Assembly (NCBI GenBank): GCA_032718475.1
Contig: JAUCBJ010007659.1
Coordinates: forward strand, 2,449 to 66,448
DNA length: 64,000 nt
Source of the DNA: Nemertoderma westbladi
Lineage: Eukaryota; Animalia; Xenacoelomorpha
Direction of reading: 5' to 3'
The translations under genes were made by a program, and so were the position numbers. The number at the start of each line of letters is the position of its first letter. Position 1 is the first letter of the stretch. Under the pieces are notes generated by a model that ran no database searches, had not been told where the DNA came from, and saw nothing but the letters and a program-made list of their open reading frames with translations. This document shows positions 695-24,276 of the stretch, one piece after another.

Positions 695-2036
695 TGGAGT
701 GTTTTACTGTGGAAGATCACCCATGATGGTGAACAGGCATTCCTTTAGGAAACAGTGGAAGGGGTGTACTGTGGAGGATCACCCATGGTGGTGAACAGGC
801 ATTCAATTAGGAAACAGAGTGGAAGGGTTTACTGTGGAAGATCACCCATGATGGTGAACAGGCATTCCGTTAGGAAACAGAGTGGAAGGGGTTTACTGTG
901 GAAGATCACCCATGGTGGTGAACAGGCATTCATTTAGGAAACAGAGTGGAAGGGTTTACTGTGGAAGATCATCCATGGTGGTGAACAGGCATTCATTTAG
1001 GAAACAGAGTGGAAGGGTTTACTGTGGAAGATCACCCATGGTGGTGAACAGGCATTCATTTAGGAAACAGAGTGGAAGGGTTTACTGTGGAAGATCACCC
1101 ATGATGGTGAACAGGCATTCCGTTAGGAAACAGAGTGGAAGGGTTTACTGTGGAAGATCACCCATGATGGTGAACAGGCATTCCGTTAGGAAACAGAGTG
1201 GAAGGGGTTTACTGTGGAAGATCACCCATGGTGGGGAACAGGCATTCATTTAGGAAACAGAGTGGAAGGGTTTACTGTGGAAGATCACCAATAATGGTGG
1301 TGAACAGGCATTCTTTTAGGAAACAGAGTGGAAGGATTTACTGTGGAAGATCAACCATGTTGGTGAACAGGCATTTATTTGGGAAACAGAGTGGAAGGGT
1401 TTACTGTGGAAGATCACTCATGGGGGGTGAACAGGTATTCCTTTAGGAAACAGAGTGGAAGGGTTTACTGTGGAAGATCATCCATGGTGGTGAACAGGAA
1501 TTCCTTTAGGAAACAGAGTGGAAGGGTTTACTGTGGAAGATCACCCATGGTGGTGAACAGGCATTCATTTAGGAAACAGAGTGGAAGGGTTTACTGTGGA
1601 AGATCCTCCATGGTGGTGGACAGACATTCCTTTAGAAACATAGAGGAAGGGTTTACTGTGGAAAATCACCCATGGTGGTGAACAGGAATTCCTTTAGGAA
1701 ACAGAGTGGAAGGGTTTACTGTGGAAGATCACCCATGATGGTGAACAGGCATTCCGTTAGGAAACAGAGTGGAAGGGTTTACTGTGGAAGATCACCCATG
1801 ATGGTGAACAGGCATTCCGTTAGGAAACAGAGTGGAAGGGGTTTACTGTGGAAGATCACCCATGGTGGTGAACAGGCATTCATTTAGGAAACAGAGTGGA
1901 AGGGTTTACTGTGGAAGATCACCAATAATGGTGGTGAACAGGCATTATTTTAGGAAACAGAGTGGAAGGATTTACTGTGGAAGATCAACCATGCTGGTGA
2001 ACAGGCATTTATTTGGGAAACAGAGTGGAAGGGTTT
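695..2036. repeat. 63-bp tandem minisatellite, left part (interrupted by the LTR element)
   Basis: Unit GAAACAGAGTGGAAGGGTTTACTGTGGAAGATCACCCATGGTGGTGAACAGGCATTCCTTTAG repeated about 21 times, with a ~634-bp higher-order duplication. Confidence 0.97.
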
Positions 2037-2087
2037 TGTTACGGTATATGGCGCTGTATCCACATTATTAGCCATTATGCAGTATAA

Positions 2088-2176
2088 TATATTAGTCCGT
2101 TATACTGTACGCAATATTAGTCCGTTATACTGTACGCAATATTAGTCCGTTATACTGTACGCAATATTAGTCCGTT
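2088..2176. repeat. 25-bp tandem repeat in LTR U3 (about 3.5 copies; also at 19080-19168)
   Basis: ATTAGTCCGTTATACTGTACGCAAT at 2091, 2116 and 2141, partial at 2166. Confidence 0.9.
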
Positions 2177-2545
2177 GTGCAGCATAATATTTTAGATAAG
2201 GCATAATAGCGCAGTGATATTTAGATAGGGAAATCGAAACGCCCATATATTTTGAATCCATCCATTTTGTATAGTATGTAGCCCTACCTACGTAATTTTG
2301 TAATAGGATATAGGTAGATAGTTCCAGGGTAGCAAGTTTAGTCGGACCCTGGATTTTGTGCTTGCTGTTATTAGCTTTGATAGGGCTAGATATAGGGACG
2401 CTGTCCTGGCCATTCAGCAGCCAGGGACATGATCCATTACCATATATGGTAATAATTTGAGGTTTGGGGAGCAATAGGGCTACAATCCGGCCTCCTTATT
2501 GGACTAACTGCTTCCAGGTTGGTCTAATGCTAGCGCGGACTGGAG

Positions 2546-2606
2546 AGCCAATAGGAGAGCGATTGAGTCACCCTATTGCATCACCCCATTCGGATCACCT
2601 ATAAAT
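2546..2606 (+). promoter_or_regulatory. Putative LTR promoter (CCAAT and TATA boxes)
   Basis: AGCCAATAG at ~2546-2554 and TATAAA at 2600-2605; AATAAA motifs further into the LTR at 3469, 3590 and 3646. Confidence 0.5.
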
Positions 2607-4288
2607 TGGCGGTTTGCCGGTAGAGCTGCACACCCTTACAACCAACCTTAACCTCAGTACCAATCTCAATCCTCTGTAGGTGTACAGTTAGAAGTATAAT
2701 TTTGCGTATTTCTGCAATTTGCTAAATTTTGATTAATTTCTTGAGATGATTTGCTAGTGCTATTATTCTCGATTGCGTTTCTCAATTAATCCTATCGATT
2801 ACTGCTAATTACAATCGGAACTATGATTTCTACCCCTTTTGTTAATGGTTCTATGTGATTCCTTTCTACGCAATAATCCTAAGGGATTTCTGAGACTGTC
2901 AGAATTTGTGATTTTGCATGCGCCGCTACGGTAGCTATTCAATTAAATGAAGGGCTAAGGTGCCAGTAGGCGGTGGGCGCATCGGGGGGTTGGGCGACTA
3001 AGGGAGAGCGGAGGATTCAAAGGCGGGCAACGCTGGCGGGGGTCAACGTTGTGGTAGGGCAGTTTGGACTGTGAGTTGGAGACCGCTCGCCGGTACAGTA
3101 ATTAGGGGGCTGATGATCCAAGGTTTTGTCTCTATTTAGTATTAGGGGGGCAGGAATTGGGTTAGTTAGGAAGCCTAGATGTACCCGGGAGGGGCCTGCA
3201 TACCTCACAGTAAGTAAGTAAGTGGGTAAGTACGTAAGTAAGTTGCGAATTATATAATTGCAGATTGTATAATTGCAAATCGTGCTATTTGTGATCTGTG
3301 ATTGCTGACGCTGATTGGTGTGTTACTGAAGTGTGCCTATGATTACGAATGCTTAGGTAGGCGCCCCTTTTCTTTGATTGATTTCTATTTCTTAGTTACT
3401 ACAAATAATTACTGATTAGGTCAAAGTAATACGGCAATTTAGGCTATTACTAGCGAAACCTGTTGTGTAATAAATTAGAATTACGCATTCTGGAACTCTT
3501 AGTAATTAGTGCGCTGTTACATATTTGTGACTGTAATTGATTAGTAAAATTAAGAATTAGTACGCAGCATAGCGGAGAGTAGCTAAGGTAATAAATTAGA
3601 GTACCGTAAACTATTCACGCTAGGCGGTTATTTGCATTAGCGGGCAATAAACTAGATCGCAATAGTCAGTACGCAAGACACTAGTGAATTGCTGGCCTAA
3701 AGCCAGCTGCAGGCAAGTTTAGACCCGGAGTGGTATCACCCACGAAAGACATTGTACTGTACCAATTTTGATTATTTTAAATATTCTCGCATTCACACAT
3801 TCCGTTAGGGAACGCCCAGTATTCGCGGTTAGAAAAGACGTAAGCATTAGTGTACTTCAATAAGTGGTAAAATTAGGCGTAAGAATACTCTGAGTGCAAA
3901 GCCCCTCGCACTCGTCTTAAGTAAGCTTAGGGAGCCGACTCGGGTTTATTGTTTTGGTTATTCCCGTGTGGCTCATAGATTCGAACAGTTAGCTCTCTAT
4001 CGAGTGATCGGTAGAGAAAGGAACAAGCGATTTTGCAGGAGTTGTGTAAAATTAGTAAAATATATTAGCGGACGGCAGATTAGCGCCATCCAACGGTAAG
4101 TAGCGGTTTTGTATTTAGCAGCCTTTACAATTTAGTAATGGCACGCTCCTGATCCCCTTTACTTAACAGTAGAGCAGTCTTTGTGTCTTATTGGTTAGGC
4201 GAGAGCTCATTAGGTTGGCAGAGAGGTATACGGGTATTTGTCTGTTCAACAGTTCTGCTGTTAGTATAGGTGTCGCGGTTGTTTATCA

Positions 4289-4300
4289 GTGAGGTATGCA
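4289..4300 (+). promoter_or_regulatory. Non-canonical primer-binding site, complementary to LTR 3197-3208
   Basis: GTGAGGTATGCA directly follows the LTR end with no TGG; its reverse complement TGCATACCTCAC lies at 3197-3208 and 20189-20200. Confidence 0.65.
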
Positions 4301-5575
4301 TTGGTTACTGTACTAAGTACTGTACTGCGTACGGTGACGAGTGTATTCTGCATTAGATTACTGTATTATTTACTGATACTTCGTATCAGTGAGGTATGTT
4401 GCTTGTTTTTTTTATTGGCTGTTGCTTGCAGCAGTCAATAGTGTATTCTTAGGCTGATTAGTAGTATCACAGTATTAAGTAATAAATTGGAGCACGTGAT
4501 CGTCTGCTATAGGCTAGCGTACGGTAGAACATTGAGTGTATTCATTTAGGCTGTTAGTTTAGATTACTGTATTCACTGGTCGCGTACAATAGTACAGTAG
4601 TACATTAGGCTGATTGCTGTTACTGCGTACGGTAGAAGGACATTTGTTTGCCGTACCACATACAGTATTTTTTAGGCTGTTAGGTTGGTGTACTGTTTTA
4701 CTTACTGTACTGCGTACAGTGGATGTACGGTAGTGCGTTTTTGCTAATTGCGAATACAGCAGTTCCTTAGGCTTTAGGGCAAATTGTAATTAGTAAGTTT
4801 TTTGAAAATTTTAGCTAGGTTTGCGAGAATTCAGTTTCGGTCAAAATTATTTGTAAAATTCTAGAGTTTTGTACCGGTATGTTAGGTAACCGCTTAGTTA
4901 TTTTATACCATCTGGAGATACATGGCAAGACGGAACTTCTGAGTTTGGGGTTCATGTGGGTCTGCGGGTTCGGTTTGCAATCAGCGAAGGGCCTGAATCT
5001 TTGGATGCGGACGTGGAATCTCACAGCAAACAAGGTTAGTTGTTCTGTTGGCACCATTGTGTTTGTGGAAGCAGTAAAAAATTATCGGTTGTTTAACTGC
5101 GAAGCTGAACTCAATTTATTAGTTAGGATATTTAGGTTTAGCCGGCCATGGTTTTTTGAATCGCTCAAGTTAGAGAGAGAGTTAGAGAGAGTCGCAACCC
5201 AAAGATGTAGCCACGCGCTAGTGGATACATATAATATTTGAAATTAAAATTACATTGATTAGAGCTATATATAAAATTAGAAATATTCGGGTGGCAAGTT
5301 TATTTTGAATATTTTGTATTAGATTCAAAGTTATTTTGTGCTATACCGGTATTTAATTGCTATAATAGCTATATAATAATATTTTGTTTAAATATTGTGC
5401 TAGTATTTGCTATAACTATACCCCATTAAATTCCCAATATTGCATTGCGAATTTATTTGACATTTGGACCAACTGATTATTTGACAAATAATTTGACCGT
5501 ATTTCGGTTAAATTATAATTATATCTCGAACTTTTGCGAGATATTTTTGCCGGAAGGCAAAACATTATTTAGACT

Positions 5576-8500
5576 ATGAGTGTCTCAGACAAAGAAGCAC
5601 TAGAGGACAGCTATGAGACGGCGGCTGGACCGCCGACTGACGATAGCGTAAATATTACTGTTGACGACAATGCCGACTATGACGACGCAGCGAGCGACGC
5701 TGACGTAAGTGAACAGGAGGACGAGACAGTGACTAGTGAGGAAGAACAACAACCTCAAGTAATAGTATTAGGATCCCCTACCGCTACTGTAGGGAAGGAT
5801 TGTACAGCAACCCAACCAGAGGTGAGTGATAGGGAGGGTAGTGTAGCAGAAGCGAGAGCCCGGAGCCCGGTTTCCAGACCTGTGGGTATGGTAAGTGCCG
5901 TGGTCCCGACGGCTGTAAGGAGTACCCGTAGTTCCCGAAATAATCCTTCAAGTCCACCGAGTGTGAGTCAGGTAAGCGAGAGAGAACTAGACATCGCGAT
6001 AAAGAAGAAACTTCGCGCGCATGCCGGACATATAACTCGGACGGCGGACAAGGTAAGGAAGATGTTAGCTGACTCAGCGAACATCGGGAGGGTAGAGTTA
6101 GTAGAGATTAGAAGAGGATATAACTCAGCGTTATTCAAGCAGACGGAGGAGCTTGCAGTCCTAGCGAAGAAGGCAGTAGAGTCTCAGTCGAGCGACGTGG
6201 CGACGAGGATTTACGACAGGGTTTTAGCAGCCTTGTTGGAGCACCACGAGTTATCGGAGCGATTCCGACGAGGTAGGACGGAGAACTGGCTGCTATGGGC
6301 ATCACAAGCGCAGGCGACTCAAGTGAGTGACGCAGCGTTGAGAGACTTAGTGGAGCGAGAAGAGATCCAAGACAAAGAAGAGCGCCGTTATCAGAGGGAA
6401 GTTACTAGCTGGCTGATGCAGAATGGAGTGGTGGTACCGGGTCAGGTGCTACCGACGACGGAGAACATTCAACAGAGGACGTTAACTCCACCCGACGATG
6501 CATCCAGAGACAGCGGCGATTCCCAGGTTAGTCACGCGCGAGGTAAGGTTATATGTGCTAGATCCCTTGTTTCGCACAACTCGGCGGAGGAGAGAAGACG
6601 CCGACTGGACGAACAACAGGCGGAAGTTTTGCGTGCATCGGAAGCACGGAAGGAAGCCGAGCGGGAACGGGAGCGCACACGTAAGTTGGACGCGGAATTG
6701 CGAGAGTTGGAAGAGATAAGTAAGCGCGAGCGAGCGGAACGCGAGCAAAGGGAACGCGAACTCCAAGCCGAGCGCGTGCGCGAGGAACTCGAACGCGAAC
6801 AGAGAGAACGCGAACTCCAACTTGAATGCGAACGGGAAGCGAAGAAATGCGAACTCCAACTCGAACGCGAACAGGAAGCGAAGAAACGCGAACTCCAAGC
6901 CGAACGCGAACGCAAGAAACTCGATCGTGAACAGAAGGAGCGCAAGCTTCAACTCGAACGCGGACGCAAGGAACGCGAACTCGAGATCGAAAAAAGAAGA
7001 CGCGCATTGTATGAAGAAAAGGAGCGTGTGGAAGAAGAGAGCGCAGCGAGACGAGCGAGGGAAGAAGAAGAACGTAAACTGGCGCAGTTGGAAAGTGCGA
7101 GATTAAGTTTAGAGAGCGAAGAACGGACTAGGAAGGCGAACGAAATCGCCGAGAAGGGGATGCGAATGATCGAAGAATGTGGGGCGAGTATAGGGACAGA
7201 GTTGCGAGAACTGTTCGCACTGCAGAAGGCCGAACAGGAAGCGAGAACTCCGACTATACGCGAGTCGACAACAACCAGAATTCCTATACCCGGTCCAGCT
7301 ATTACGAGTACACGGATCGCTAAACCGTTCTCTACATATCGCACGCCAGTTGGTATTAGTGCTTCACCCATCGCCCAGGATCCACGTCATCGGAACACCG
7401 CTCCTAAACTCGATCGTGAACAGAAGGAGCGCGAGCTTCAACTCGAACGCGCACCACTATACACCGCACCACTATACACCGAACGAGAGAACGAAGAATT
7501 TAGAGGAGAAATTCCAACGGGACGAGTATTGGGCGAACCGAACCCGCGGGTTTGGAATACGCGGACGGAGCGCCAACCCAGTTCGACGGAGAACTTCCGG
7601 GTTAAACCGGAAGAGGGATCATATGAGAGACATCGGATTACTCAGATAGAGCCGACTATACAACAGAACCCTAGCCAGGAATTTATTACGAGGGATGAGT
7701 TAAGTGCTAGTTTAGCGCAAGCTATATCGCCACACATCCAACCTATAACGGACATGCTTAGCAACCTACGGTTAAAGGAAGCAGCCCAGGTAAGAAGTAA
7801 TTCAAATCCTAGCAGGCCTGAGTCAGATAAAGTCCAGCCTAGTCAACGAGTACGCATATCGGAGGAGACTATACCACGTAGACCTCAGGTAAGGACGCCT
7901 GTCCCGAATATTCATAATCCCAATTTCGAAAACTCAGCCGAGAAATTTATTGAGGAAGCTTGGGTCAGGGCCTCGGCACGCAAACCATTGCGAGCACTAA
8001 GGACTGACACCGAGTCAAGCGATGAAGAGGAAGACATGAGACGTCAGAAGTCCCGAAACTATAAGGAAAGAAGGACGGACGCGGAGCAGGTAAGTTTGAA
8101 CCACCGGGAAAGGAACAGACTTAACAACCCTGCGGAACTAAACCATTTGTTAACCCGGAACAACGCAACCCTTAGGGACATAGGTAAGTTTGCTGCTAGG
8201 CAAGGACTGCCGACGCAACAACCCCAGAAGTTTATGGGCAACCATAAACACTGGAGGACCTTCAAAACCTATGTCGACGAGCAGCTAACCAACAGCACCT
8301 TTACTCCCAACGAGAAGTTCAACTATTTGCTTCAGATGCTCCATCGAGAACCTAGAGCCATTGCTGATAACTTCGTCGGCAACGAAAGAGCATTCGAGTT
8401 AGCGATGAAGACGCTTAGCAACATCTACGGGAATAAAACGAAGATGGCGCAGTCGATAGTAGAAGACTTGGGTAAGGGCGGAAGGATTACAACTCCGTTA

Positions 8501-11500
8501 GAGCTGTTGAACTTAGCGAACGCTATTTCGAACGCATTGGACATCTTGAGGACGGTGAATCTACCTCATCATGGTGATCACGCCGAAGTTTTAAAGAGTG
8601 TAATAAGACGTTTAAACATGCGTTATCGACAGAAATGGCGCAAATTAGAGAATAAGTTGGAGGGTCAAGGTAAAGTATTGACACTTCAACACATTCATGA
8701 CATGATAGCCACAGACGCAGTAGCAGAGATGAAATCAAACTTCTCAGAAGAGAATATGAGAGAGTCTAAACCTGTTACCGGTAAGTCTATGGTAAGTTTT
8801 GACGATGACAGGACCACTGTGACATTTAACTCAGTAGACAGATATAATTCGAATACCCCAGCCTTTAGATCAGACTCGCGAGTATGGTCAGGTGAGCGGT
8901 TAGATAGACCTAGGTTAAAGCAACAGGAGTTGCCGGATGGATTTGTAGGTTGCCAATACTGTTTACTAAAGGAGGTAAGATCTGATGACCATAAGTTAGA
9001 TAGTTGCAGACGGTTCAAAGAATTAAATTCGGAACAGAGAAGAGTTCAAGTGCGGACGTTGGACACCTGTTGGGCATGTCTTGCGCCAGGCCATGTACGG
9101 CGGCAGTGCCCGAACAGCAAGGACGGATGCATGGAATGCGGCAGACTACATCACAAGTTGCTACATGCGGATTTCCATACCCCAACGGACCGTTACTTAC
9201 AGCGAAATCCTCAAAGGAAGGGGAGCAAAGAACCCATATCGATAAGGAGGAATACGTATACCGGCATTCAGGACGATGGTTACCAACCAGGTTCGTCGGA
9301 CGAGGATGGCGAGTCGAGCGCGAGAGAAGTGACCTGCCAAGGTTTCACTGCGGATAGTTTATCGACCAGCGCGCGGACGTATTTATCATCGGCCACGTCG
9401 GAAATATTTAGCGTGATTCCGGTGAAACTCACTGGCGATAAGGGATCGAAGCGAATATATGTGATGTTGGACACTGCGTCCACATTATCTTATATCGACG
9501 AGGAAGTGGCGAGAGCTGTTTCTAGCTTCCAGGACGCCGAGGAGATCCAAATAGAGTTGAAGTCTATGCATGGGGTAGGAGACCTCAAGGGACACAGAAT
9601 TTCGGTAGAACGAGACTCCCTACTTCCGAGAGACCAACATACTCGACAAGAACGAAAAGCTTTGCCATTGGACGGATTTAAGTGTCTAGCTATGAAGGGA
9701 TTCGGCAGGCAGTTAGGTAAGGTGCCACCGATGAGTCCCATAGCACAGGAGTATTTTGACAAGCTCAGGATACCCAGACACCAGGTAGGTTATAGGAATG
9801 TTTCTATGTTGATTGGTGCAGAACAGCTGATCGCACACCAGATATGGGAAACGAGACCAGCTGAGCCGCATGTCAATGGACCACATGCCCATAGGACCAT
9901 ACTAGGTTGGTATACACGAGTACCCATGTCTTATGAGTTTACAGGTGGCGACAAGCCGATGGACAGATACGACGAATTACAGCCTATAACTCAACCACCG
10001 TTAGTAAAACCACCAGACATAGACGAGTTTAGGAGAACCTGTATTGACCACTATAGTGACTTTAGCGAGTCAGACGAGGAGTTGATTCCCGATAATGTTA
10101 GGTTGTCGGAACCACTTCATAACGACCGGACAGATAGTGAACCCGAGGACTACTGTCATCAGACCCGTGGGTCTGGTTCAGCGGCCCACGCTACCTATTT
10201 GACTAACGTTTCGACTTATACAGACATAGTGGAGGGTCAAGTGGCTAAATATCGAGACCTAGACATTTTCCAATACAGTGAGGAGGAATTACAGAAGGAA
10301 TTGATACGCCAGGACCTCGAGACAGGAGCCAGAACCGTCGAATGGCTGGATAGGGACGCAATGGAACCCGGTGGATATGACCTAGCCATGTCCACTGACG
10401 AGAAACGGTCGCTGGAGATGATGGAAGATACCATACGTCTGCTACCGACAGGACATTTTGAAGTTGGAATGTTGTGGCGTCGACAACCACCTAAGTTGGA
10501 GAACAACTACAACTTAGCCTTGAAAAGATTAAACGGAGTAAGGGCTCGGTTGTTGAATAATCCGGACATTAGGGAGAAGTATTGCGCCCAGATCAACAAC
10601 TATTTTGCCAAGGGATTTGCTGGGAAGGTAGAGGACCCTGACTTAGTGACAGACCAGACTTATTACCTTCCACACCACTATGTGACTCACCCTGACAAGC
10701 CAGACAAAGTCCGAGTAGTCAACGACTGCGCAGCAGTCTATAGAGGTATGTCCCTGAATTCAGAGTTGATGGATGGTCCCAACCTGAACAACTATTTGAT
10801 TGGAATATTGTTGCGTTTTAGACAGCAGCGATTCGCATTTACTTGTGACATCGAGGCGATGTTCCACCAGGTAAGAGCCTGTAAGGCAGACCATGATAGC
10901 CTTCGCTTTCTCTGGTATGAGAATGAAGACTTATCCGGCCCAGTGGTTACATACCAGATGTACGTTAGGATATTTGGCGCCCGCGATAGTCCAAATGGCA
11001 CGCTGTTTGTTCTAAAGAAAACGGCAACAGCCCAGATTGGTAAGTACCCAGTAGAGGTTATCGAGTCCATCTTGAGAAACTTCTACATGGACGACGGATT
11101 GGTGTCCAAGGACACGGCGGAACAAGCCATAGAAGGGGCTCACGGCCTGCAAGAGTGCTTGGCTACAGGGGGTTTTCCTCTGACCAAGTTCACTACAAAC
11201 TCGGAGGCCCTATTAGAGTCGTTCCCAGTGAAAGATCGCGGGAGCGGAGACATAGAATTGGGGGTAGAACCAATCCCCATGGCGCGAGTACTGGGACTCG
11301 CTTGGAACCCGAACTCAGACAAGTTCCAGGTAAGAGTTAGATTTGAGCCCAGTAGCCCAGACAAAGTTTTGACAAAGAGGATTTGCTTATCGACATTAAG
11401 TAGACTATTTGACCCGATGAACTTTATCAGTCCGGTTATATTACAGGCACGAGCGTGCATGAGGAAAATTTGGTTGTCCGACATAGAGTGGGACGAACCA

Positions 11501-12418
11501 ATATCTCCTATACATGCAAAGCAGTGGAGGGAGTGGGAAGCCGAGTTACATCTATTGAAAAACATAGATGTACCCCGTTCCTACTTTCCGAATCAGCTGG
11601 TATTTCCAGCTGATCTCGAACTCCACCTATTTAGTGACGCAAGTGACACCGGCTTTGGTATGGTAGCCTACCTTCGCCGAGAGGTAAGTCAGGACAAATT
11701 TGAGACGGCCTTTGTGACTTCTAGATCAAAGACAATGCCAGTCAAATACATGACTGTCCCTCGTGCAGAGTTACAGGCGGCTGTAGTTTCAGTCGAGGTA
11801 AGTAAGCAAATAACTGAGGAGTTAGACACGACATTGACCTTATTCTATTGGACGGACGCATCCTTGGTGTTAGTATACATTGCGGCCGACAATATTGCAC
11901 TAAAGACATTTGTGGCCAACAGACGCGCTCAGATCGTTGATTTTTCGACGAAGGAACAATGGAGACATTGTCCGGGAGTGTTAAACCCGGCCAACATAAC
12001 TTCGAGAGGTGCAATGCCGGCGGAATTCTGTCAGGAAGAGTCGCAGGAGTTTTGGTTGCATGGACCTGATTTTCTAACGAGGACACAGGAACATTGGCCA
12101 GAGCGACTAAAGATTGTGACCAATCCGATGCCTGAAGATGCAGAAGTCAAAGTGGAGAAAGTCTCTAAGTCAAAGTCTAAAGCCAAACTTAAGTCATTGG
12201 AGCGGCCTGAAGAGTCATTGGAGCGGCCTGAAGAGTCATTGGAGCGGCCCGGAGACCTGTCAGACCAACAGACTTACGTGACTACTAGGTCCGGAAGGGT
12301 AAGTTATGATGTAAAACCACCCTTACAGACTAAACCGGAGTCACAATTGGTAAGTGACGGACAGAAAATGACTGACACAATGGATCCTTTGGTTTCCAAA
12401 CCTGCGGGTTTGGATTAG
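5576..12418 (+). CDS. Bel/Pao Gag-Pol polyprotein (Gag, aspartic protease, RT, RNase H)
   Basis: 2280-aa ORF: coiled-coil N-terminus, Gag knuckles CWACLAPGHVRRQC and CMECGRLHHKLLH, protease LDTAS, RT YYLPHH/KVRVVNDC/DIEAMFHQ/YMDD, RNase H FSDAS/ELQAA/WTDAS. Confidence 0.93.
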   Translation: MSVSDKEALEDSYETAAGPPTDDSVNITVDDNADYDDAASDADVSEQEDETVTSEEEQQPQVIVLGSPTATVGKDCTATQPEVSDREGSVAEARARSPVSRPVGMVSAVVPTAVRSTRSSRNNPSSPPSVSQVSERELDIAIKKKLRAHAGHITRTADKVRKMLADSANIGRVELVEIRRGYNSALFKQTEELAVLAKKAVESQSSDVATRIYDRVLAALLEHHELSERFRRGRTENWLLWASQAQATQVSDAALRDLVEREEIQDKEERRYQREVTSWLMQNGVVVPGQVLPTTENIQQRTLTPPDDASRDSGDSQVSHARGKVICARSLVSHNSAEERRRRLDEQQAEVLRASEARKEAERERERTRKLDAELRELEEISKRERAEREQRERELQAERVREELEREQRERELQLECEREAKKCELQLEREQEAKKRELQAERERKKLDREQKERKLQLERGRKERELEIEKRRRALYEEKERVEEESAARRAREEEERKLAQLESARLSLESEERTRKANEIAEKGMRMIEECGASIGTELRELFALQKAEQEARTPTIRESTTTRIPIPGPAITSTRIAKPFSTYRTPVGISASPIAQDPRHRNTAPKLDREQKERELQLERAPLYTAPLYTERENEEFRGEIPTGRVLGEPNPRVWNTRTERQPSSTENFRVKPEEGSYERHRITQIEPTIQQNPSQEFITRDELSASLAQAISPHIQPITDMLSNLRLKEAAQVRSNSNPSRPESDKVQPSQRVRISEETIPRRPQVRTPVPNIHNPNFENSAEKFIEEAWVRASARKPLRALRTDTESSDEEEDMRRQKSRNYKERRTDAEQVSLNHRERNRLNNPAELNHLLTRNNATLRDIGKFAARQGLPTQQPQKFMGNHKHWRTFKTYVDEQLTNSTFTPNEKFNYLLQMLHREPRAIADNFVGNERAFELAMKTLSNIYGNKTKMAQSIVEDLGKGGRITTPLELLNLANAISNALDILRTVNLPHHGDHAEVLKSVIRRLNMRYRQKWRKLENKLEGQGKVLTLQHIHDMIATDAVAEMKSNFSEENMRESKPVTGKSMVSFDDDRTTVTFNSVDRYNSNTPAFRSDSRVWSGERLDRPRLKQQELPDGFVGCQYCLLKEVRSDDHKLDSCRRFKELNSEQRRVQVRTLDTCWACLAPGHVRRQCPNSKDGCMECGRLHHKLLHADFHTPTDRYLQRNPQRKGSKEPISIRRNTYTGIQDDGYQPGSSDEDGESSAREVTCQGFTADSLSTSARTYLSSATSEIFSVIPVKLTGDKGSKRIYVMLDTASTLSYIDEEVARAVSSFQDAEEIQIELKSMHGVGDLKGHRISVERDSLLPRDQHTRQERKALPLDGFKCLAMKGFGRQLGKVPPMSPIAQEYFDKLRIPRHQVGYRNVSMLIGAEQLIAHQIWETRPAEPHVNGPHAHRTILGWYTRVPMSYEFTGGDKPMDRYDELQPITQPPLVKPPDIDEFRRTCIDHYSDFSESDEELIPDNVRLSEPLHNDRTDSEPEDYCHQTRGSGSAAHATYLTNVSTYTDIVEGQVAKYRDLDIFQYSEEELQKELIRQDLETGARTVEWLDRDAMEPGGYDLAMSTDEKRSLEMMEDTIRLLPTGHFEVGMLWRRQPPKLENNYNLALKRLNGVRARLLNNPDIREKYCAQINNYFAKGFAGKVEDPDLVTDQTYYLPHHYVTHPDKPDKVRVVNDCAAVYRGMSLNSELMDGPNLNNYLIGILLRFRQQRFAFTCDIEAMFHQVRACKADHDSLRFLWYENEDLSGPVVTYQMYVRIFGARDSPNGTLFVLKKTATAQIGKYPVEVIESILRNFYMDDGLVSKDTAEQAIEGAHGLQECLATGGFPLTKFTTNSEALLESFPVKDRGSGDIELGVEPIPMARVLGLAWNPNSDKFQVRVRFEPSSPDKVLTKRICLSTLSRLFDPMNFISPVILQARACMRKIWLSDIEWDEPISPIHAKQWREWEAELHLLKNIDVPRSYFPNQLVFPADLELHLFSDASDTGFGMVAYLRREVSQDKFETAFVTSRSKTMPVKYMTVPRAELQAAVVSVEVSKQITEELDTTLTLFYWTDASLVLVYIAADNIALKTFVANRRAQIVDFSTKEQWRHCPGVLNPANITSRGAMPAEFCQEESQEFWLHGPDFLTRTQEHWPERLKIVTNPMPEDAEVKVEKVSKSKSKAKLKSLERPEESLERPEESLERPGDLSDQQTYVTTRSGRVSYDVKPPLQTKPESQLVSDGQKMTDTMDPLVSKPAGLD

Positions 12419-14059
12419 AAACTTCCATTAATTAGCGGACAACCGTCGCTGGCATTAGAATCATGCAGTGTTTATGACAAATTACTAAATTCGTCTGCCT
12501 CTTGGCTGACAATTTGTAAAAGAACTGCGTGGTTAAACCGATACATTTCGTACCTTTGTTTAAAACATTCGGAACATTTAGGAGAACCATCGAGCGCTAA
12601 TAGTGAGCGAATTCAGAAATTGAAACAACCTCTGACAGAGGATGAGATTGATCAAGCGGAATTAAAGCATTTGAAGCATTATCAAATGTGTGCCTTCCCT
12701 AAAGAATTCCATCTATTATCAGCTCAACGACCAGTTCTCTATAAACCCCTTAGAAAATGGAGTCCATTAATCCATAAGGGTTTGATTTGTCATAGATCGA
12801 GAATCCAGACTGTCGACATAAACTCACAGTTTCGGTTCCCAGTGATAATCCCTAGTCACCCAATAGAATTGCAAAGAGCGATTCTATGGGATATACACAA
12901 GAGGTTGGATCACGCGGGAAAGTTACACTGTTTGTCGGCAGCGAGACAGCGATTCATTCTATTGCAGCCAAGCAGGGCAGTAGGCACTATGTACGACGCC
13001 TGTCTGGTTTGCAAGAGAGTGAACGCCAGAGTATTGGAACAGGAGATGGCTGAACTCCCGGAAGCGAGAGTGCAGGCATATGACCCACCCTTTACGAACA
13101 CAGGGGTGGACTGTTTTGGTCTGATTGAGGCAAAGAGTGGACGGCTGACCCACAAGCGATGGGGTCTGCTGCTGACATGTATGGCTAGTAGAGCCATACA
13201 TATCGAGCGTGTGGCAGACATGTCGACCAAATCTCTGCTCCTGGCCTTGAAGAGATTTATGGCCAGGAGAGGACTAGTATAGGCGTTCTATTCCGATAAG
13301 GGTACAAACTTTGTCGGAGGGAATAGCGAGTTGAACGCCGCTCATAAAGCGGCACAGAATAAGGAAATTTCTGCAGCACTTTTGCCGCAACGAGTAGAGT
13401 GGAGATTTAATACTCCAGAAAGTCCTTGGAGAGGAGGAAGTTGGGAGCGTTTAGTTCGCTCTGTAAAGCAGGCCATTGCCAAAACATTGCCTGTGAACAA
13501 ACAACTTACCGACGACGAACTGGTCACAGCTTTCATCGAAATCGAGCATACATTAAACTCGAGGCCGATAGCTATGTTGCCAGACGGTGTTGCATTAACG
13601 CCGAATCATTTGCTAATGCAGAGTCCAGCATTTCTTGTGCCGGCATCAGAACCCATTAGTGCCGACCTATATAGTCGTAAAAGCTGGAAGGTGACTCAAT
13701 TAGTGGCGTACACATTCTGGGAATATTGGCGGGAATACTATCTTCCCACCATATCTACCAGAACAAAGTGGTACAAAACGGTTCGGAGTCTCCAAAGGGG
13801 AGATTACGTATTGATAACCGAGCCGATTGTCAAGAGAAAGTATTGGGAGACTGGAGTGATCTTGCACACACACCCAGACGTGCAAAACATAGTGCGCACA
13901 GTCACTGTGAAAATTAGGTGCAAGTGTCCACACCCAAAAAAGTGTAAAACTAATGGTTTGCACACCTTGGACCGACCGGTCCAAGATATTGTGTTATTAG
14001 AGGAGACACGTATCGAGACGGGAGATTATAATTTGTCTCCTGCCTCAAAACAGAATTAG
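12419..14059 (+). pseudogene. Integrase portion of pol, same frame, cut off by in-frame TAG stops at 12416 and 13280
   Basis: Frame continues after the stop (SSASWLTICKRTAWLNRY); HHCC motif (HKRLDH...CLVC); DDE motifs GVDCFG, RRGLV*AFYSDKGTNF and GGSWERLVRS; LTPNHLL. Confidence 0.9.
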
Positions 14060-14749
14060 TGTTGGACGCAACTCACTTCGTATGCATTCCTCGTATGCAG
14101 ATACAAGGAAATGCATAGGAGCGGGTTGTGGTGATTTGCGTTGAGTTTTGTCTGGTGGGCATCAAAACAAAATTTTATTTTCAAAAATTTTTGGAAAATT
14201 AAAAAATTTTAAAATTAGAAGTAAACCCAAGACAATTCCAAACGCTGTGTATAGACGCGTTTTAGAATTCGTCTATAGATAAACAGTAATTTGAAAGTCG
14301 TGAAGCCTGGAAAATAGCATTTAGAAACCATGGTGACGGCTATATTACGTAGGAGTGTAAATTGAGTTTAGCAACTTCCACAGATTGGTGCCAACAGTGC
14401 AACTAAGGTGCTAAAGGTTAGTAGCACCAGAGGCGTACATGGACCCCACTCAGTAGTTTGCAGTGATGTGTGATGTTCGATTATCAAACCTGTGGGTTTG
14501 GTATAGTCGAGTATTGTGGCTATAGTCCTTTCTAACTACTGTAGTTTAGTACGAGTAATGGGAGTAGTTTGGGCATCAAAAAGTGAGTTGGTCACGGCCA
14601 GTTTATCTCCAAAGTTTTTGCGCTATGCATGGGAATAGGTTAGAGGTTAGTTAGTTAGGAAGAGACGGGATCTAGAGAGTCGAACCTGAACTGCTGGAAA
14701 GCGGGGGGGGGGGGGGGGGGGGTTCGGGAGGTCTGTCTTTCGGCAACAT

Positions 14750-14768
14750 CTAACTGATTTACCCACAG
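14750..14768 (+). promoter_or_regulatory. Candidate branch point and splice acceptor for the extra-ORF mRNA
   Basis: CTAAC (14750-14754) then TGATTTACCCACAG, about 60 nt upstream of ATG 14828. Confidence 0.45.
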
Positions 14769-14827
14769 TGTAATTGGTTACGTAACGGCACTTATTGGGA
14801 TATATATATGTATATACGCGAGGCATA

Positions 14828-17800
14828 ATGGAGAAGGATATTAGAGCGCAACCGCGCAGAGGATTTACTGCCAGAGAGGAGGCGGAGCTACCATTCGCGC
14901 GACCAGGATGTAAAGACTCTAACGTTTACTACCATGGGCGGTCCGTGATGGAGCTAAACGGAAAATACAAACCGACTTACGATAAGGAATTACGGAGGGA
15001 AAGAATGAGAGCGTTGGGGGACTGGATGGAAGTTTTGCGGAGAGAGTATCGCACTCGGTATCCCTACGACTTCGCTTTGGACGTATGTGACATTAGTGCA
15101 GACCCGGATGAGGAGATCGCACGACTGTACCATATGAATATGTATTTACGACACGAAGAACCTCTACCTGCAGTCCGAGATCAGTTCGACGGAATGCATC
15201 TGTACCGGAGGACTCGAGGCGAGGATCAGGAGACGCCGAAAGTCTTCAGCGTGTACAAGCTGTTCTACAAGTGTGGTGAATGCATGAATAAGCAAGACGT
15301 GGCGATTCCCGACCGACTAGACGAGCAACATCCAGAACCGATATTAACGCGATGTCCAGCTCACCAGTTCCTTAGATACAACGAGGGAGGTTACCCGATG
15401 AGCAACCCGATGATCAGTATCGACTTCAGCGGAAAGCGACCTCCGAGACCCATTACGCCGACCGTTACGACATTAGATCCGTATACGGAGATTAAACCCT
15501 GTTCGACACCCAGTTTGATAGAGACGGCAGCGGCCATTTCGCTGTACCGAGCCTATAAGGATCTAGAGGCGCGGCGCGAAGCGGCACGGGACTCGGGTAC
15601 CAAACCCGCGGGTTTGGAGCTCTCGAGTCCCTGGACTGCGTTTACTTCACCTCACCGAGCGAGAAGCCTCACGCCTGAGCATCAGGACGACATAGACGCG
15701 TTGCGGCAGGAGGAGCGAGCGGCGAAGGCGAAAGAGTTATTTGAGAATAGGATAGCGGAGTATAATAAGGCCGCGGATAGACATCAAGAGGAGACGAGGA
15801 GAGTGACCGGATTTGTTCCACAGGTCGTATCTCAACCCCGACCGGTGTATTATTCCGACGGCACCGAACCTGCGATATTAGTAGATCATCCGGAGTCGCG
15901 AGAAGCGATACGATTCTTGCCGATGGTAAGAATGGCGGATCATTGGAACGTTGACTGTCTACGGGAAGTTTTATGCGCGAAGTTCTTGCGTGATGTCCCA
16001 ATGCAGATCACAGATTACGACACATTGGATAAGATTGGAGCTCCGGGGAAGGAGAGCAAATTATTTGGATGGTTGGATAAGTACATCAAGGTATGGGTCG
16101 CGGTGGCTACATTCCCAGACGACGAGGAGGTAGACCAGACGTGGCTGAGGAGGAAGGGTTCTTATACCCGATATGATGACCACAAGGCTATCGAGCGCAT
16201 GTGGACCCCATCAGACGAGATTCAGCGTCAGTGGAGGAAAACGGAGGAATCACTGCAGGATTGGAGGGTGATGTTCTACGACAATGAAGGAGGGTCCCAT
16301 CAGGAATGTTTGACCAGCAAGTGTATTCAAATTCGTGCAGCCGATGGTGTGACTCATGTGTTTATGCGTGTGAGGGCGGATCGAGAGAGACCGGAGCCCA
16401 TCATAACGACACAATATCGGAAAGGGAAGGATCCTAGGGAGCAGATTTTGGAGGTATGCAGGCGAGGAGGTATGCACGGAGCGGAGCGTATCGACGCCAG
16501 GATGCTACCCAAGAAAGTTAGAGAGGCTATTCTCAACCAAGATTACGTCAAGGTGGGATCGGGAGTCCAGAGCGATTTGGAGAGCGACTTCAACGCCATG
16601 ACTGATCTGGAAGATAGATTGCCGAGACCGTTTGTCGACACCAAGCTATTGTTGCTATGGGCACAGGATATTGGAATTTATAGGGAGTATCCCAACTCTG
16701 CCAAGACTGGTATGGGCTTTATAGCACACTTGTTGTATAATTGGGACTTTAAGTTAAAGACGCAGAAGAAGTACGAGGAGGCGTATGGCGAATACAACAC
16801 GCCACCGGGAGCGGAGTTCAAATCCCACTTCAAGCGGCAAGCGTTAGTGTATTGGAACATTTGCGCGCCACCCCGTGCGTCGCTACAATATTATTTGGTG
16901 CTTGAGTCGAACACGGTGACTTGTTTATTAGCGGATATCGTTGCGCGAGTTTTGAAGCGTCATCCATTGGTATTCGGAGGAGATCAATACGTTCGCTCGA
17001 AAGGGGGAATCCAATCCGACGTGATGAAGCGTTTCTTAACCCCGTTCTTCAACCAATCGTTAGAGAATACGTCGATGGTTAGGAGAGGATTAGCGATATT
17101 CCAAGGAGTATATCGACAGAACATCGGAGATTTGGGAGACCGACCGTCGATGGAGTATCCGACGCCAGAGGCTTTGGAGAAGTGGTTCGGGAATCAAACC
17201 CGCGGGTTTGGTACTCCCTTCCACTCGGAGGCTGATAGACCTGTTAAGGAGGGCTGGCCGGAGACGTTAGTAGAGGTGTTCGGAGTAGATCTTCCGGTGG
17301 AGAAGACATATCCGAAACGAACGCGGGAGGAAATATTGGAGATAGAGGACAAGGGCGAGGATGTTTACTTTGTTCCGGATCGACAACCGCTGACCGGAGA
17401 GGACGACATCGTATTAGACATTGGGAAAGAAGGAAGTGCGAAACCGATTGGAGACCTCATATACGAGAGGGCCTGGTTTCCACAAGCGCGTAGGTGCAAG
17501 TTGTGCGGCAGCACAAGGCACAATCTAAAGTCGTGCGACGCGGTAGTAGAGGCGGCGCATAAGGTCTGTCGTTGGTGTAATGAGACCGACCATTCGTTTC
17601 ACACGTGCACCGTCTTCATTTCTCAATGTGGATATTGTGGGGTAAAGGGACATCGTAGCGCGAGATGTCAGCTGCGAGATGATTCCTTCCAAAACCATAG
17701 CGCTAACCTACTTCGGGAGATGTTAGATAAGTGGGAGAGTGTGGCTGACTACCATATTCAAGCGCAGATGCGTTGGTTACCATTCAAGGCGGGGTATGGA

Positions 17801-18430
17801 TTTTGGGCGGTAGACCCATCACATGTTGCGTACGAGCCATATCTACAGTCGCTACCACAATATCAGGAACTCATCCTAACTGCTCAAGACCTTCCACAAA
17901 ACACTGGAGTTATCGTAGTCCGAGAATACTTCAGACAGTTGAATATGGATAATAAGTACACCTGGAACTTCGTTGCTATTTGCGATCGAATCACGAAGGG
18001 TGTATTTTCGGAGACTAGAAAAGTGGTACGCGCGCGAGGTGATTGGAGAATGGCGGCTATACAATACCGCAACGAATTCTTGTTGACTCATGTGCCAGTG
18101 GGTTCATTGACCGCTGAGAGGATACAGGAGCAGAGGATCGCAGCGACCACAGCGACGACCGCTGGAGCTCAAGGCTCGCGGAAAGAACCAGGAGGAGGGG
18201 TCCAAGACAAGCGTCAAGTCAAGGACGACCACTATCACTCTATTATAGAAGCACAGCGGTTGCAGCGCAAGGCGCAGGGAGCGTCAGAGAAGGCGCGTGT
18301 GCAACTGCATAAGGAAGAGTTGGCGGAAGCGACCACGGGAGCACGACAATTGGGACGAGGCCCGAGGGAGAAGCACGAGCCGGGAATCTGTCGGGGCTCA
18401 GGGAGCATCGTCTCCGGTTCCGGGGAGTGA
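14828..18430 (+). CDS. Extra retrotransposon ORF (~1200 aa) of unknown function with three CCHC zinc knuckles
   Basis: Uninterrupted ORF between pol and the 3' LTR, first ATG at 14828; CKLCGSTRHNLKSC, CRWCNETDHSFHTC and CGYCGVKGHRSARC; no obvious signal peptide or TM helix. Confidence 0.85.
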   Translation: MEKDIRAQPRRGFTAREEAELPFARPGCKDSNVYYHGRSVMELNGKYKPTYDKELRRERMRALGDWMEVLRREYRTRYPYDFALDVCDISADPDEEIARLYHMNMYLRHEEPLPAVRDQFDGMHLYRRTRGEDQETPKVFSVYKLFYKCGECMNKQDVAIPDRLDEQHPEPILTRCPAHQFLRYNEGGYPMSNPMISIDFSGKRPPRPITPTVTTLDPYTEIKPCSTPSLIETAAAISLYRAYKDLEARREAARDSGTKPAGLELSSPWTAFTSPHRARSLTPEHQDDIDALRQEERAAKAKELFENRIAEYNKAADRHQEETRRVTGFVPQVVSQPRPVYYSDGTEPAILVDHPESREAIRFLPMVRMADHWNVDCLREVLCAKFLRDVPMQITDYDTLDKIGAPGKESKLFGWLDKYIKVWVAVATFPDDEEVDQTWLRRKGSYTRYDDHKAIERMWTPSDEIQRQWRKTEESLQDWRVMFYDNEGGSHQECLTSKCIQIRAADGVTHVFMRVRADRERPEPIITTQYRKGKDPREQILEVCRRGGMHGAERIDARMLPKKVREAILNQDYVKVGSGVQSDLESDFNAMTDLEDRLPRPFVDTKLLLLWAQDIGIYREYPNSAKTGMGFIAHLLYNWDFKLKTQKKYEEAYGEYNTPPGAEFKSHFKRQALVYWNICAPPRASLQYYLVLESNTVTCLLADIVARVLKRHPLVFGGDQYVRSKGGIQSDVMKRFLTPFFNQSLENTSMVRRGLAIFQGVYRQNIGDLGDRPSMEYPTPEALEKWFGNQTRGFGTPFHSEADRPVKEGWPETLVEVFGVDLPVEKTYPKRTREEILEIEDKGEDVYFVPDRQPLTGEDDIVLDIGKEGSAKPIGDLIYERAWFPQARRCKLCGSTRHNLKSCDAVVEAAHKVCRWCNETDHSFHTCTVFISQCGYCGVKGHRSARCQLRDDSFQNHSANLLREMLDKWESVADYHIQAQMRWLPFKAGYGFWAVDPSHVAYEPYLQSLPQYQELILTAQDLPQNTGVIVVREYFRQLNMDNKYTWNFVAICDRITKGVFSETRKVVRARGDWRMAAIQYRNEFLLTHVPVGSLTAERIQEQRIAATTATTAGAQGSRKEPGGGVQDKRQVKDDHYHSIIEAQRLQRKAQGASEKARVQLHKEELAEATTGARQLGRGPREKHEPGICRGSGSIVSGSGE

Positions 18431-19028
18431 CGCCTTACGGACGCCGTCAACAGAGTCTACAGGAGGTAGACTGGTGTATCTGGGCAGGGGGCGAAAGAGA
18501 GGAGCGAGCCCGAAGAACCCAGGAGCGGGTCGATAATGCATCGTAGCACAGGGCGACAGACTCTAGATATATACATCATCGTCGCTCTGATGTATATTGT
18601 AGCATTTAGAAATATTCGACTAGACTCATATACACTAGTTGCGCTGTTTTGAATTTATATTATGAGAAAGGCGAAGGAAGTGATTGGGGAGACAAACCTG
18701 CGGGTTTGGCTTACTCCTTTCACTTGCCCTAGCAAAATTTTTTATATTTGATCTTGTATGTAGTAATCATTATGTAGTACGAACGAGAAACAATATTTTG
18801 TAAATTTAATTTGTATGTAATTATCGTTAAACAGTAAGAGAGATAATATTTGTAAATTTAATTTGTATGCAATTCATTATGCAATATCTATAGCAATATT
18901 TTGTAAATAGTAGGATTTATAGTATCAAGTATTTAGATTATTTGGAAGAAATTTATTTTGTTTTGTATACATCACCTTATACTCTTCTACAGTTGGAGGG
19001 AAACATTATATGATTTCCCTTGGAGCGG

Positions 19029-21280
19029 TGTTACGGTATATGGCGCTGTATCCACATTATTAGCCATTATGCAGTATAATATATTAGTCCGTTATACTGT
19101 ACGCAATATTAGTCCGTTATACTGTACGCAATATTAGTCCGTTATACTGTACGCAATATTAGTCCGTTGTGCAGCATAATATTTTAGATAAGGCATAATA
19201 GCGCAGTGATATTTAGATAGGGAAATCGAAACGCCCATATATTTTGAATCCATCCATTTTGTATAGTATGTAGCCCTACCTACGTAATTTTGTATTAGGA
19301 TATAGGTAGATAGTTCCAGGGTAGCAAGTTTAGTCGGACCCTGGATTTTGTGCTTGCTGTTATTAGCTTTGATAGGGCTAGATATAGGGACGCTGTCCTG
19401 GCCATTCAGCAGCCAGGGACATGATCCATTACCATATATGGTAATAATTTGAGGTTTGGGGAGCAATAGGGCTACAATCCGGCCTCCTTATTGGACTAAC
19501 TGCTTCCAGGTTGGTCTAATGCTAGCGCGGACTGGAGAGCCAATAGGAGAGCGATTGAGTCACCCTATTGCATCACCCCATTCGGATCACCTATAAATTG
19601 GCGGTTTGCCGGTAGAGCTGCACACCCTTACAACCAACCTTAACCTCAGTACCAATCTCAATCCTCTGTAGGTGTACAGTTAGAAGTATAATTTTGCGTA
19701 TTTCTGCAATTTACTAAATTTTGATTAATTTCTTGAGATGATTTGCTAGTGCTATTATTCTCGATTGTGTTTCTCAATTAATCCTATCGATTACTGCTAA
19801 TTACAATCGGAACTATGATTTCTACCCCTTTTGTTAATGGTTCTATGTGATTCCTTTCTACGCAATAATCCTAAGGGATTTCTGAGACTGTCAGACTTTG
19901 TGATTTTGCATGCGCCGCTACGGTAGCTATTCAATTAAATGAAGGGCTAAGGTGCCAGTAGGCGGTGGGCGCATCGGGGGGTTGGGCGACTAAGGGAGAG
20001 CGGAGGATTCAAAGGCGGGCAACGCTGGCGGGGGTCAACGTTGTGGTCGGGCAGTTTGGACTGTGAGTTGGAGACCGCTCGCCGGTACAGTAATTAGGGG
20101 GCTGATGATCCAAGGTTTTGTCTCTATTTAGTATTAGGGGGGCAGGAATTGGGTTAGTTAGGAAGCCTAGATGTACCCGGGAGGGGCCTGCATACCTCAC
20201 AGTAAGTAAGTAAGTGGGTAAGTACGTAAGTAAGTTGCGAATTATATAATTGCAGATTGTATAATTGCAAATCGTGCTATTTGTGATCTGTGATTGCTGA
20301 CGCTGATTGGTGTGTTACTGAAGTGTGCCTATGATTACGAATGCTTAGGTAGGCGCCCCTTTTCTTTGATTGATTTCTATTTCTTAGTTACTACAAATAA
20401 TTACTGATTAGGTCAAAGTAATACGGCAATTTAGGCTATTACTAGCGAAACCTGTTGTGTAATAAATTAGAATTACGCATTCTGGAACTCTTAGTAATTA
20501 GTGCGCTGTTACATATTTGTGACTGTAATTGATTAGTAAAATTAAGAATTAGTACGCAGCATAGCGGAGAGTAGCTAAGGTAATAAATTAGAGTACCGTA
20601 AACTATTCACGCTAGGCGGTTATTTGCATTAGCGGGCAATAAACTAGATCGCAATAGTCAGTACGCAAGACATTAGTGAATTGCTGGCCTAAAGCCAGCT
20701 GCAGGCAAGTTTAGACCCGGAGTGGTATCACCCACGAAAGACATTGTACTGTACCAATTTTGATTATTTTAAATATTCTCGCATTCACACATTCCGTTAG
20801 GGAACGCCCAGTATTCGCGGTTAGAAAAGACGTAAGCATTAGTGTACTTCAATAAGTGGTAAAATTAGGCGTAAGAATACTCTGAGTGCAAAGCCCCTCG
20901 CACTCGTCTTAAGTAAGCTTAGGGAGCCGACTCGGGTTTATTGTTTTGGTTATTCCCGCGTGGCTCATAGATTCGAACAGTTAGCTCTCTATCGAGCGAT
21001 CGGTAGAGAAAGGAACAAGCGATTTTGCAGGAGTTGTGTAAAATTAGTAAAATATATTAGCGGACGGCAGATTAGCGCCATCCAACGGTAAGTAGCGGTT
21101 TTGTATTTAGCAGCCTTTACAATTTAGTAATGGCACGCTCCTGATCCCCTTTACTTAACAGTAGAGCAGTCTTTGTGTCTTATTGGTTAGGCGAGAGCTC
21201 ATTAGGTTGGCAGAGAGGTATACGGGTATTTGTCTGTTCAACAGTTCTGCTGTTAGTATAGGTGTCGCGGTTGTTTATCA
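19029..21280 (+). repeat. 3' LTR (2252 bp)
   Basis: Direct repeat of 2037-4288; preceded only by a short purine-rich GGAGCGG (weak PPT). Confidence 0.97.
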
Positions 21281-23291: not shown

Positions 23292-24276
23292 CTTAACAAG
23301 CCTAAAAGTTTCTCCCATTCAATATACTAAAATCCCACAAGGAACCAACCGAGAGGCATATTCCCCAGAAACCCAAACAAATACAATATGTGCCATGGTA
23401 AGACTCTGGGGTTACTTGTAAGAGAGGAGATCTTTGCATCTTCCAATTCAATTTTATAATATTATTTAAATTAATTATTTTATGTGCTATAAAGTTTATA
23501 TAAGCGTTTACTAGGAGGTAATACAGTATCTAACTAGTCAGTGATGTGGACGATGACTGCTACAGTATGTTGAATTTGGTATTGTACTTTTGCCCCATAC
23601 AATGATTCCATAGAAGGATTAATTAGAGAGTTAATTAAGGGATATGAAAGCGGAATATAAGGTTAGTAAGATAATTCAGTGGTGAAATAATACCGAAGGT
23701 TGAAATACCGGATAATTTCGATATTTACAGATAATTTATGCGCAATGTGTTTTCCAGCTGATTTTATTATTATATTGCCAATAATTTTGAAGCAGTTGTT
23801 TCAGTTAACGTAGCAGAATGGATTTTGATTGGATGGGTGAACTGATGCCTAGTAATATTTAAAATTATGATATATTTGGTTTCTTCAAATATAAGTTTAT
23901 TTCAGCAATAATAAATATAATGTAAAGTGTGAAAACTCCATCTTCCCTTTTCTTCACAATGCAATGCGATATTCTCATTGGTTAGACATTACGGTTGGTC
24001 GAATTATACATCATTCCCTTTGTTCTTGTAGAAGTATATTAAAATGCTACATACTGTAAATGAAGGCAAAATATAGATTTACAATATTTACTACTGCCAA
24101 TAATATAATTTACTAACAATGTTTATGTTTTAAAAGTAAATGTTCACTTCGTGAACGTTATATAATATTTAACAAAAATAATTATAGTTTTGATGTTGTT
24201 TTGCCTAAAGTGTCCCTTTACCCATATTTGGTAAAATATTATTCAATTCGGATATACTTAATATTTTTAAACAGTC

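Follow-up and report, generated by a model that had tools for sequence, protein, structure and literature searches.

The window, by which we mean the whole 64,000-nt stretch of DNA analysed, contains a young Bel/Pao retrotransposon that spans positions 2037-21280 (19,244 bp, 19.2 kb) and whose two long terminal repeats (LTRs) differ by 8 substitutions over 2252 bp. The features of the element are the following:

2032-2036 and 21281-21285: target duplication GGTTT, 5 bp
2037-4288, plus strand: 5' LTR, 2252 bp, with TG...CA ends
5573-14059, plus strand: Bel/Pao gag-pol, with DUF1759, protease, reverse transcriptase (RT; FYMDD), RNase H, integrase and DUF5641
14786-18430, plus strand: extra open reading frame of 1214 codons with three CCHC knuckles, between pol and the 3' LTR
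19022-19028, plus strand: short purine tract preceding the 3' LTR
19029-21280, plus strand: 3' LTR, 2252 bp, with the same terminal CA as the 5' LTR and with the 12-mer discussed below repeated at 20189-20200

The assignment to Bel/Pao, already made in a preliminary description of this DNA, was borne out by a Pfam search, which recovered the domain set of the group (PF05380, PF03564, PF17921 and PF18701) in the window element. More specifically, Gag is followed by a Pol in the PR-RT-RH-IN motif order with the family-specific domains, and the TG...CA LTRs, the target duplication and the purine tract are likewise those of a Bel/Pao element. The best 120 protein matches carry the same domain set, with 37-43% identity across the RT-RNase H part, and the named ones among them come from marine invertebrates. 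The gag-pol frame is broken by in-frame stops at 12416 and 13280, although the 1214-codon frame behind it is intact. For this extra frame a Pfam search returned no match, no relative was found among 7990 candidates of 660-2100 residues, and no membrane segment was found when one was looked for; it is not env-like.

According to the ICTV profile of the Belpaoviridae, which describes Bel/Pao replication as poorly understood, members have genomes of 4.2-10 kb, LTRs of 0.2-1.2 kb and an 18-nt primer-binding site (PBS) for tRNA-Arg or tRNA-Gly, from which a host tRNA primes (PMC8742986); a tRNA-Tyr site is given for Achilles of Bactrocera oleae in excerpts of PMC4580426. The window element shares with these the gag-PR-RT-RH-IN order, the LTRs, the purine tract, the Pao peptidase and DUF1759/DUF5641, whereas its 2252-bp LTRs and its 19,244 bp exceed the ICTV ranges and it has no tRNA site. 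The element sits inside a 63-bp satellite array (733-2036 and 21281 to about 24000), and further tandem arrays (31, 18, 63, 36 and 24 bp) at 24276-26675, 31220-34677, 36640-39456 and 49500 to about 58700 occupy much of the window; the long open reading frames within them are artefacts of the repeats. The minus strand carries an RT fragment (PF00078) at 46338-47474. No tRNA genes were found within the window, and an Rfam search of 1900-21500 gave no match at E<=1.

The region directly behind the 5' LTR and its counterpart within the LTR carry the following features:

3197-3208, plus strand: candidate self-primer TGCATACCTCAC, complementary to the PBS and co-varying with it
4289-4300, plus strand: putative PBS GTGAGGTATGCA, abutting the LTR end and without TGG
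4289-4353, plus strand: local hairpin able to sequester the PBS, -27.0 kcal/mol
4384-4398, plus strand: second copy of the LTR end with 10 nt of the PBS, 100 nt downstream and within a small hairpin

The preliminary description had pointed out that the 12 nt after the 5' LTR lack a TGG and are the exact reverse complement of an LTR segment, and both statements hold for the sequence: 4289-4300 pairs with 3197-3208 (and with 20189-20200) at 12 of 12 positions, the match beginning at the first base past the LTR (offset 0) and ending at 12 nt. Its chance expectation, put earlier at about 1e-4, was recomputed by iid and Markov models as 5e-5 to 1.3e-4 (0.5-2e-4 overall), and in the empirical background 3 of 14,710 internal positions give a match of at least 12 nt, the PBS match being among the three. 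A complement of 12 nt at offset 0 lies within the range used elsewhere to predict self-priming, at least 10 nt starting 0-5 nt behind the 5' LTR. The 18-nt tRNA-complementary site of the ICTV description was not found, there being no TGG at the LTR end. The TGG nearest to it, at 4302, was considered as a displaced tRNA site and rejected, as it lies 13 nt too far from the LTR end and has no T-arm complement.

In retroelements the U5 end of the 3' LTR is defined by the point at which minus-strand synthesis starts, and priming must therefore have taken place within a few bases of 4288, where no TGG occurs. By the same reasoning, the second copy of the PBS did not set the terminus of this element copy, given where the 3' LTR ends. 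This second copy belongs to a duplication of about 100 nt (4284-4408) that repeats the LTR end along with 10 nt of the PBS and is missing from one diverged member of the family.

We then considered how the PBS may pair in RNA. The 12-mer is its best partner in the LTR (-21.5 kcal/mol, against -13.4 kcal/mol for the next). In unconstrained folds of 3197-4420 and of 3080-4420, the helix between 12-mer and PBS has a probability of 0.0 in both, because the PBS takes up its local hairpin and one of the folds has the 12-mer paired to the second PBS copy (4389). Forcing the helix costs 8.0 and 11.4 kcal/mol, and 0.5 when the region ends at 4320. In the forced fold the primer helix is followed by a small bulge and by an 8-bp R:U5 helix, in which 3210-3217 pairs with the U5 end at 4279-4286 and which is lost in the diverged branches described below, while the upper stem of the local hairpin (4301-4341, -15.9 kcal/mol) stands alongside and does not conflict with primer binding. 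Folds this long are unreliable, and the computed structures do not support the self-priming model. An additional helix between 4301-4314 and 3092-3105 had been proposed; nine base pairs between 4305-4313 and 3093-3101 are present, but this helix would compete with the hairpin 4301-4341, and the 3' side is missing in one diverged member, so that we do not retain it. The sequence involved is common in the element, as had been remarked, TACTGTAC being found 13 times in the window. A second PBS partner in the LTR, at 3850-3859/3860 (10 pairs, 3 of them G-U, -12.0 kcal/mol), is a possible alternative U5:PBS helix.

A primer taken from the element's own LTR predicts that changes in the PBS are matched by changes in the LTR, a check that the preliminary description had suggested. 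Six public runs contain the stretch in whole or in part, none of them recorded as RNA. Family variants were collected as contigs of four runs aligned to 2000-6500, and later as contigs aligned to 3080-3222, and the contigs on 2000-6500 reveal an abundant and varied family. Run X5, which may be RNA by guess only, reaches neither the upstream side of the primer nor the PBS, a result without bearing on expression. One contig of run X3 (depth 219; its shorter side has 29 letters), which lacks the window region 4291-4408, carries four changes in the PBS (4291 G>A, 4293 G>A, 4295 T>C and 4297 T>C). The partner letters expected in the LTR were written down before the LTR-side contigs were examined. 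Loose ends behind 3199 in three contigs of run X1 (study P1) and four of run X3 (study P2) showed 3200 A>G, 3202 A>G, 3204 C>T and 3206 C>T, and no change at the remaining five positions up to 3208. All four PBS changes (4/4) are thus matched in the LTR, giving four two-sided compensatory changes, the LTR side of which is seen in two studies, with a chance of 1e-5 to 5e-4 depending on whether the 9% upstream divergence or a generous 25-44% is assumed. On the LTR side 13 of 44 loose ends were listed, each cell being a majority over 3-4 short contigs; the variant PBS is one contig in one run, and the variant PBS and variant LTR sites stand on separate contigs that are not physically linked. Such matching could also arise if the primer were copied into the PBS in the course of reverse transcription, which itself presupposes priming. 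A third branch, known from the LTR side (four contigs of X3), has 7 of 12 primer positions changed and keeps the terminal AC, which faces the GT directly after the LTR. In the interval 3080-3222 there are 2 and 3 variable sites in X1 and X3 against about 10 expected, a weak hint only, as the two alignments used different thresholds. One X3 loose end, noticed post hoc in a single contig, has three changes at 3850-3860, each of which improves the pairing with the variant PBS.

We next looked at related Bel/Pao elements. A profile scan of metagenome contigs, from which the best 80 of 529 relatives were kept, yielded 13 loci with a repeat pair ending in a CA/TA terminus, picked by eye, and as two of these belong to one family they represent 12 elements, 35-42% identical to the window element in RT. 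Eleven of the 12 have no TGG and match their own LTR over 10-15 nt, the match beginning 0-4 nt past the LTR end. The self-match is contiguous in three of them (L046, L067 and L077), while in the other eight (L004, L005, L011, L017, L025, L027, L038 and L051) it appears only after removal of a predicted intron of 76-186 nt whose donor is GTAAGT, GTAAGC or GTACGT and whose acceptor is rich in pyrimidines; the acceptor pattern was already visible before the splice-junction test was made. In L013 and L033, too, the PBS complement exists only across a GT-AG intron, which brings the range over ten LTRs to 66-186 nt. These predicted introns are retained in the DNA of the LTRs. Among the controls, 10 nt was reached by 4 of 442 decoy windows and by 5 of 156 cross pairs, two of which join sister families. 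In a blind scan of seven further loci, two new families had self-matches of 11 and 15 nt (shuffles 0/40 at >=11 nt), two families already counted had 11 nt, L068 had 10 nt, which is within chance, and L028 (7 nt) and L039 (8 nt) had no self-match. No relative was found among viral contigs (0 of 74 pattern matches). The sole TGG relative of the 12, L058, has its TGG at +6 and a self-match of at most 4 nt, and its site resembles the complement of tRNA-Tyr ends from a supplement table. In a tree of 78 RT sequences, built without named reference elements, the priming types are interspersed, and the window element sits on a long branch with a support of 0.11 and no supported position. The TGG family of L058/L079 (first 80 bases) is nested among self-matching families in this tree, hinting at switches between priming modes.

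A chance match, or a functionless by-product of a local inversion or template switch, is hardly credible in view of these results: it can appeal to multiple testing in a genome-wide scan and to nothing else, against an advance prediction that held in two studies and against 11 of 12 relatives compared with 4 of 442 decoys. It is also unlikely that the helix between LTR and PBS is a structural switch, acting in packaging, translation or masking of the PBS, with a host tRNA fragment or another small RNA as the true primer. The PBS does have other partners, namely its local hairpin and 3850-3859 (-12.0 kcal/mol), and half-tRNA primers without TGG occur in copia lineages (in excerpts of PMC6317226). 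Half-tRNA priming, however, would leave the PBS constant within a lineage, whereas here the family itself shows differences at 4 of the first 10 PBS positions and each of the 11 relatives has a different site, always matched by its own LTR, which a fixed host primer could not track; moreover, the register of the helix with the LTR end is kept in every case (offset 0-4). Complementarity, its register with the LTR end, the lack of TGG, the matched changes in a diverged branch and the same arrangement in relatives are all seen directly, and the complementarity, the matched changes and the relatives make self-priming likely, as the preliminary description had proposed. We hold it to be probable that the element primes from its own LTR RNA.

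The position of this primer within the RNA depends on the signals of the LTR, which are the following:

2548-2605, plus strand: candidate Pol II promoter with CCAAT (2548) and TATAAA (2600), the start presumably near 2630
3110-3139, plus strand: predicted 3' splice site 57 nt upstream of the primer, with branch-point-like CTGAT, pyrimidine tract and TAG
3210-3243, plus strand: six donor-like GTAAGT repeats following the primer, absent from diverged branches
3378-3395, plus strand: predicted acceptor, top-ranked in 2600-3700, which would close an intron from 3210
3469-3651, plus strand: three AATAAA signals (3469, 3590 and 3646)

The TATA box assumed earlier is present, with CCAAT upstream of it, and in unspliced RNA starting where this box suggests, the 12-mer would lie about 570 nt behind the start. 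As the first AATAAA is downstream, the 3' end of the RNA likely falls behind the primer, which thus lies in R. Candidate donors occur at 2677, 3071 and 3210-3238, and the two best acceptors in 2600-3700, ending at 3395 and, second by pyrimidine count, at 3139, both have a branch-point-like motif. These signals predict a 70-nt exon, 3140-3209, ending one base behind the primer. Removal of both predicted introns would leave the primer some 100 nt away from the cap and some 75 nt away from the poly(A) signal; 12 of 13 relatives show 12-98 nt. On balance we favour a primer that keeps a 5' tail, as an internal primer at the end of this short exon; a primer formed by the first 11-12 nt of the RNA seems somewhat less probable. 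A hammerhead ribozyme at the CTGATGA of 3110 was rejected by eye, as no GAAA core is within reach and a branch point fits better.

Transcription starts follow a pyrimidine-purine rule. A TATA-less start at or within a base or two of 3197, which would make the 12-mer the 5' end of the RNA as in Tf1 and deprive the TATA box at 2600 of its role as the genomic start, agrees with this rule through T3197-G3198, giving an 11-nt primer of Tf1 length (excerpts of PMC7175516). The segment 3080-3197 is about 91% kept in the branches that diverge from the primer onward, as would be expected of a core promoter, although the same conserved block also contains the branch-point-like motif and the acceptor. 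Among the relatives, L004 has a TATA 31 nt before the 5' end of its primer, whereas this distance is 133 nt in L025 and 124 nt in L046, and 10 of the 13 have no canonical TATA; in the window no TATA lies 30 nt upstream of 3197, CCAAT and TATA being found at 2548-2605 instead. We regard such a start as rather doubtful.

The 3' end of the primer might be made by the first splicing step at the GTAAGT donors rather than by RNase H. Of the seven GTAAGT of the LTR, six fall within 3210-3243, starting one base behind the primer, and a GT likewise comes after the primer of one diverged branch and of L046 and L051. A cut at 3209/3210 would nevertheless leave an unpaired A opposite A4288, and no donor stands behind the primer in two of three diverged branches and in most relatives (10 of 13 begin with neither GT nor NGT). 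Spliceosomal cleavage is thus very unlikely, and, as the diverged branches do without the donor cluster, this cluster is not the general source of the primer's 3' end.

Returning to priming by the LTR 12-mer with cleavage by RNase H, the steps may be envisaged as follows. The RNA would begin in the LTR, either at the 12-mer or upstream of it, and end behind one of the AATAAA signals, and would fold back so that 3197-3208 anneals to 4289-4300, aided in the branch of the window element by pairing of 3210-3217 with 4279-4286 across a small bulge and with the hairpin 4301-4341 alongside. By analogy with Tf1, the RNase H of the element's own RT would cut at or beside 3208/3209, and the freed 3'-OH would be extended from 4288 through U5 and R back to the cut. 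The stretch from the cut to the poly(A) site could then serve strand transfer, regenerating the whole LTR, and since this segment permits the transfer, the LTR would be rebuilt with or without a 5' tail on the primer. We consider it probable, if a little less so than self-priming as such, that minus-strand synthesis starts in this way from the 12-mer after one predicted cut at the duplex's 3' edge. An internal primer had been taken in the preliminary description to imply a different mechanism; this was overstated, since one cut on the 3' side, as in Tf1, suffices.

In Tf1, the RNA's first 11 bases anneal to the PBS, and the RNase H cut falls between bases 11 and 12 (excerpts of PMC7175516, PMC4600332 and PMC5341516). 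With Tf1 and Tf2 of Schizosaccharomyces pombe, Tj1 and the Tf1/sushi lineage of Ty3/gypsy, as these sources present them in part, the window element shares the absence of a tRNA site and an LTR segment of 11-12 nt complementary to the bases right behind the 5' LTR. It belongs, however, to another superfamily, with Bel/Pao domains and not the chromovirus-type Pol of Ty3/gypsy; its primer is 1.1 kb away from the PBS, within an LTR of 2.25 kb, and need not be the 5' end of the RNA, and 8 of its 12 Bel/Pao relatives have their primer only across a predicted splice junction. The window element would work like Tf1 but is not a member of Tf1/sushi. That self-priming is established for Tf1/sushi had been stated correctly, but it is also predicted beyond that lineage: in excerpts of PMC6317226 the rule of at least 10 complementary bases 0-5 nt behind the LTR, to which the window element conforms, is applied to Tcn1 chromoviruses and to the TAR (Houba/Osr-1) copia lineage of plants, which belong to other superfamilies and hosts and for which those excerpts mention no splice-junction primer.

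For Bel/Pao, a literature search by title and start of abstract, with most subscription papers, Repbase and the GyDB notes outside its scope, found no case of self-priming, nor did 12 of 18 relevant passages of PMC3601003 or the excerpts of PMC5443660, PMC4580426, PMC13524379 and PMC3286476; in the Bel/Pao surveys PMC3118150 and PMC554778, the primer-site terms looked for are absent. A self-priming Bel/Pao branch would be the third superfamily to reach the same solution, would account for many Bel/Pao elements without a recognisable PBS, and would provide a test for annotation, namely a search of the LTR, spliced or unspliced, for the complement of the PBS. The present family contributes covariation within a family that was predicted ahead of the look-up. 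An internal or splice-made primer would mean that the RNA is prepared differently from that of Tf1, coupling retrotransposition to host RNA processing. We see an even chance that tRNA priming has been lost in a broad Bel/Pao branch, which takes as its primer an internal piece of its own LTR RNA shaped by splicing, here the end of a short exon and, for most relatives, an exon-exon junction. It would then be up to host splicing which transcripts are open to reverse transcription, and the matched pair of primer and PBS would be free to evolve.

Finally, a degenerate primer-like sequence is found at 2627-2639, 27 nt behind the TATA box, which is the expected site of a Tf1-type primer, and the diverged members also change directly after 2624-2632. 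This sequence is possibly a relic of an older promoter-primer module.
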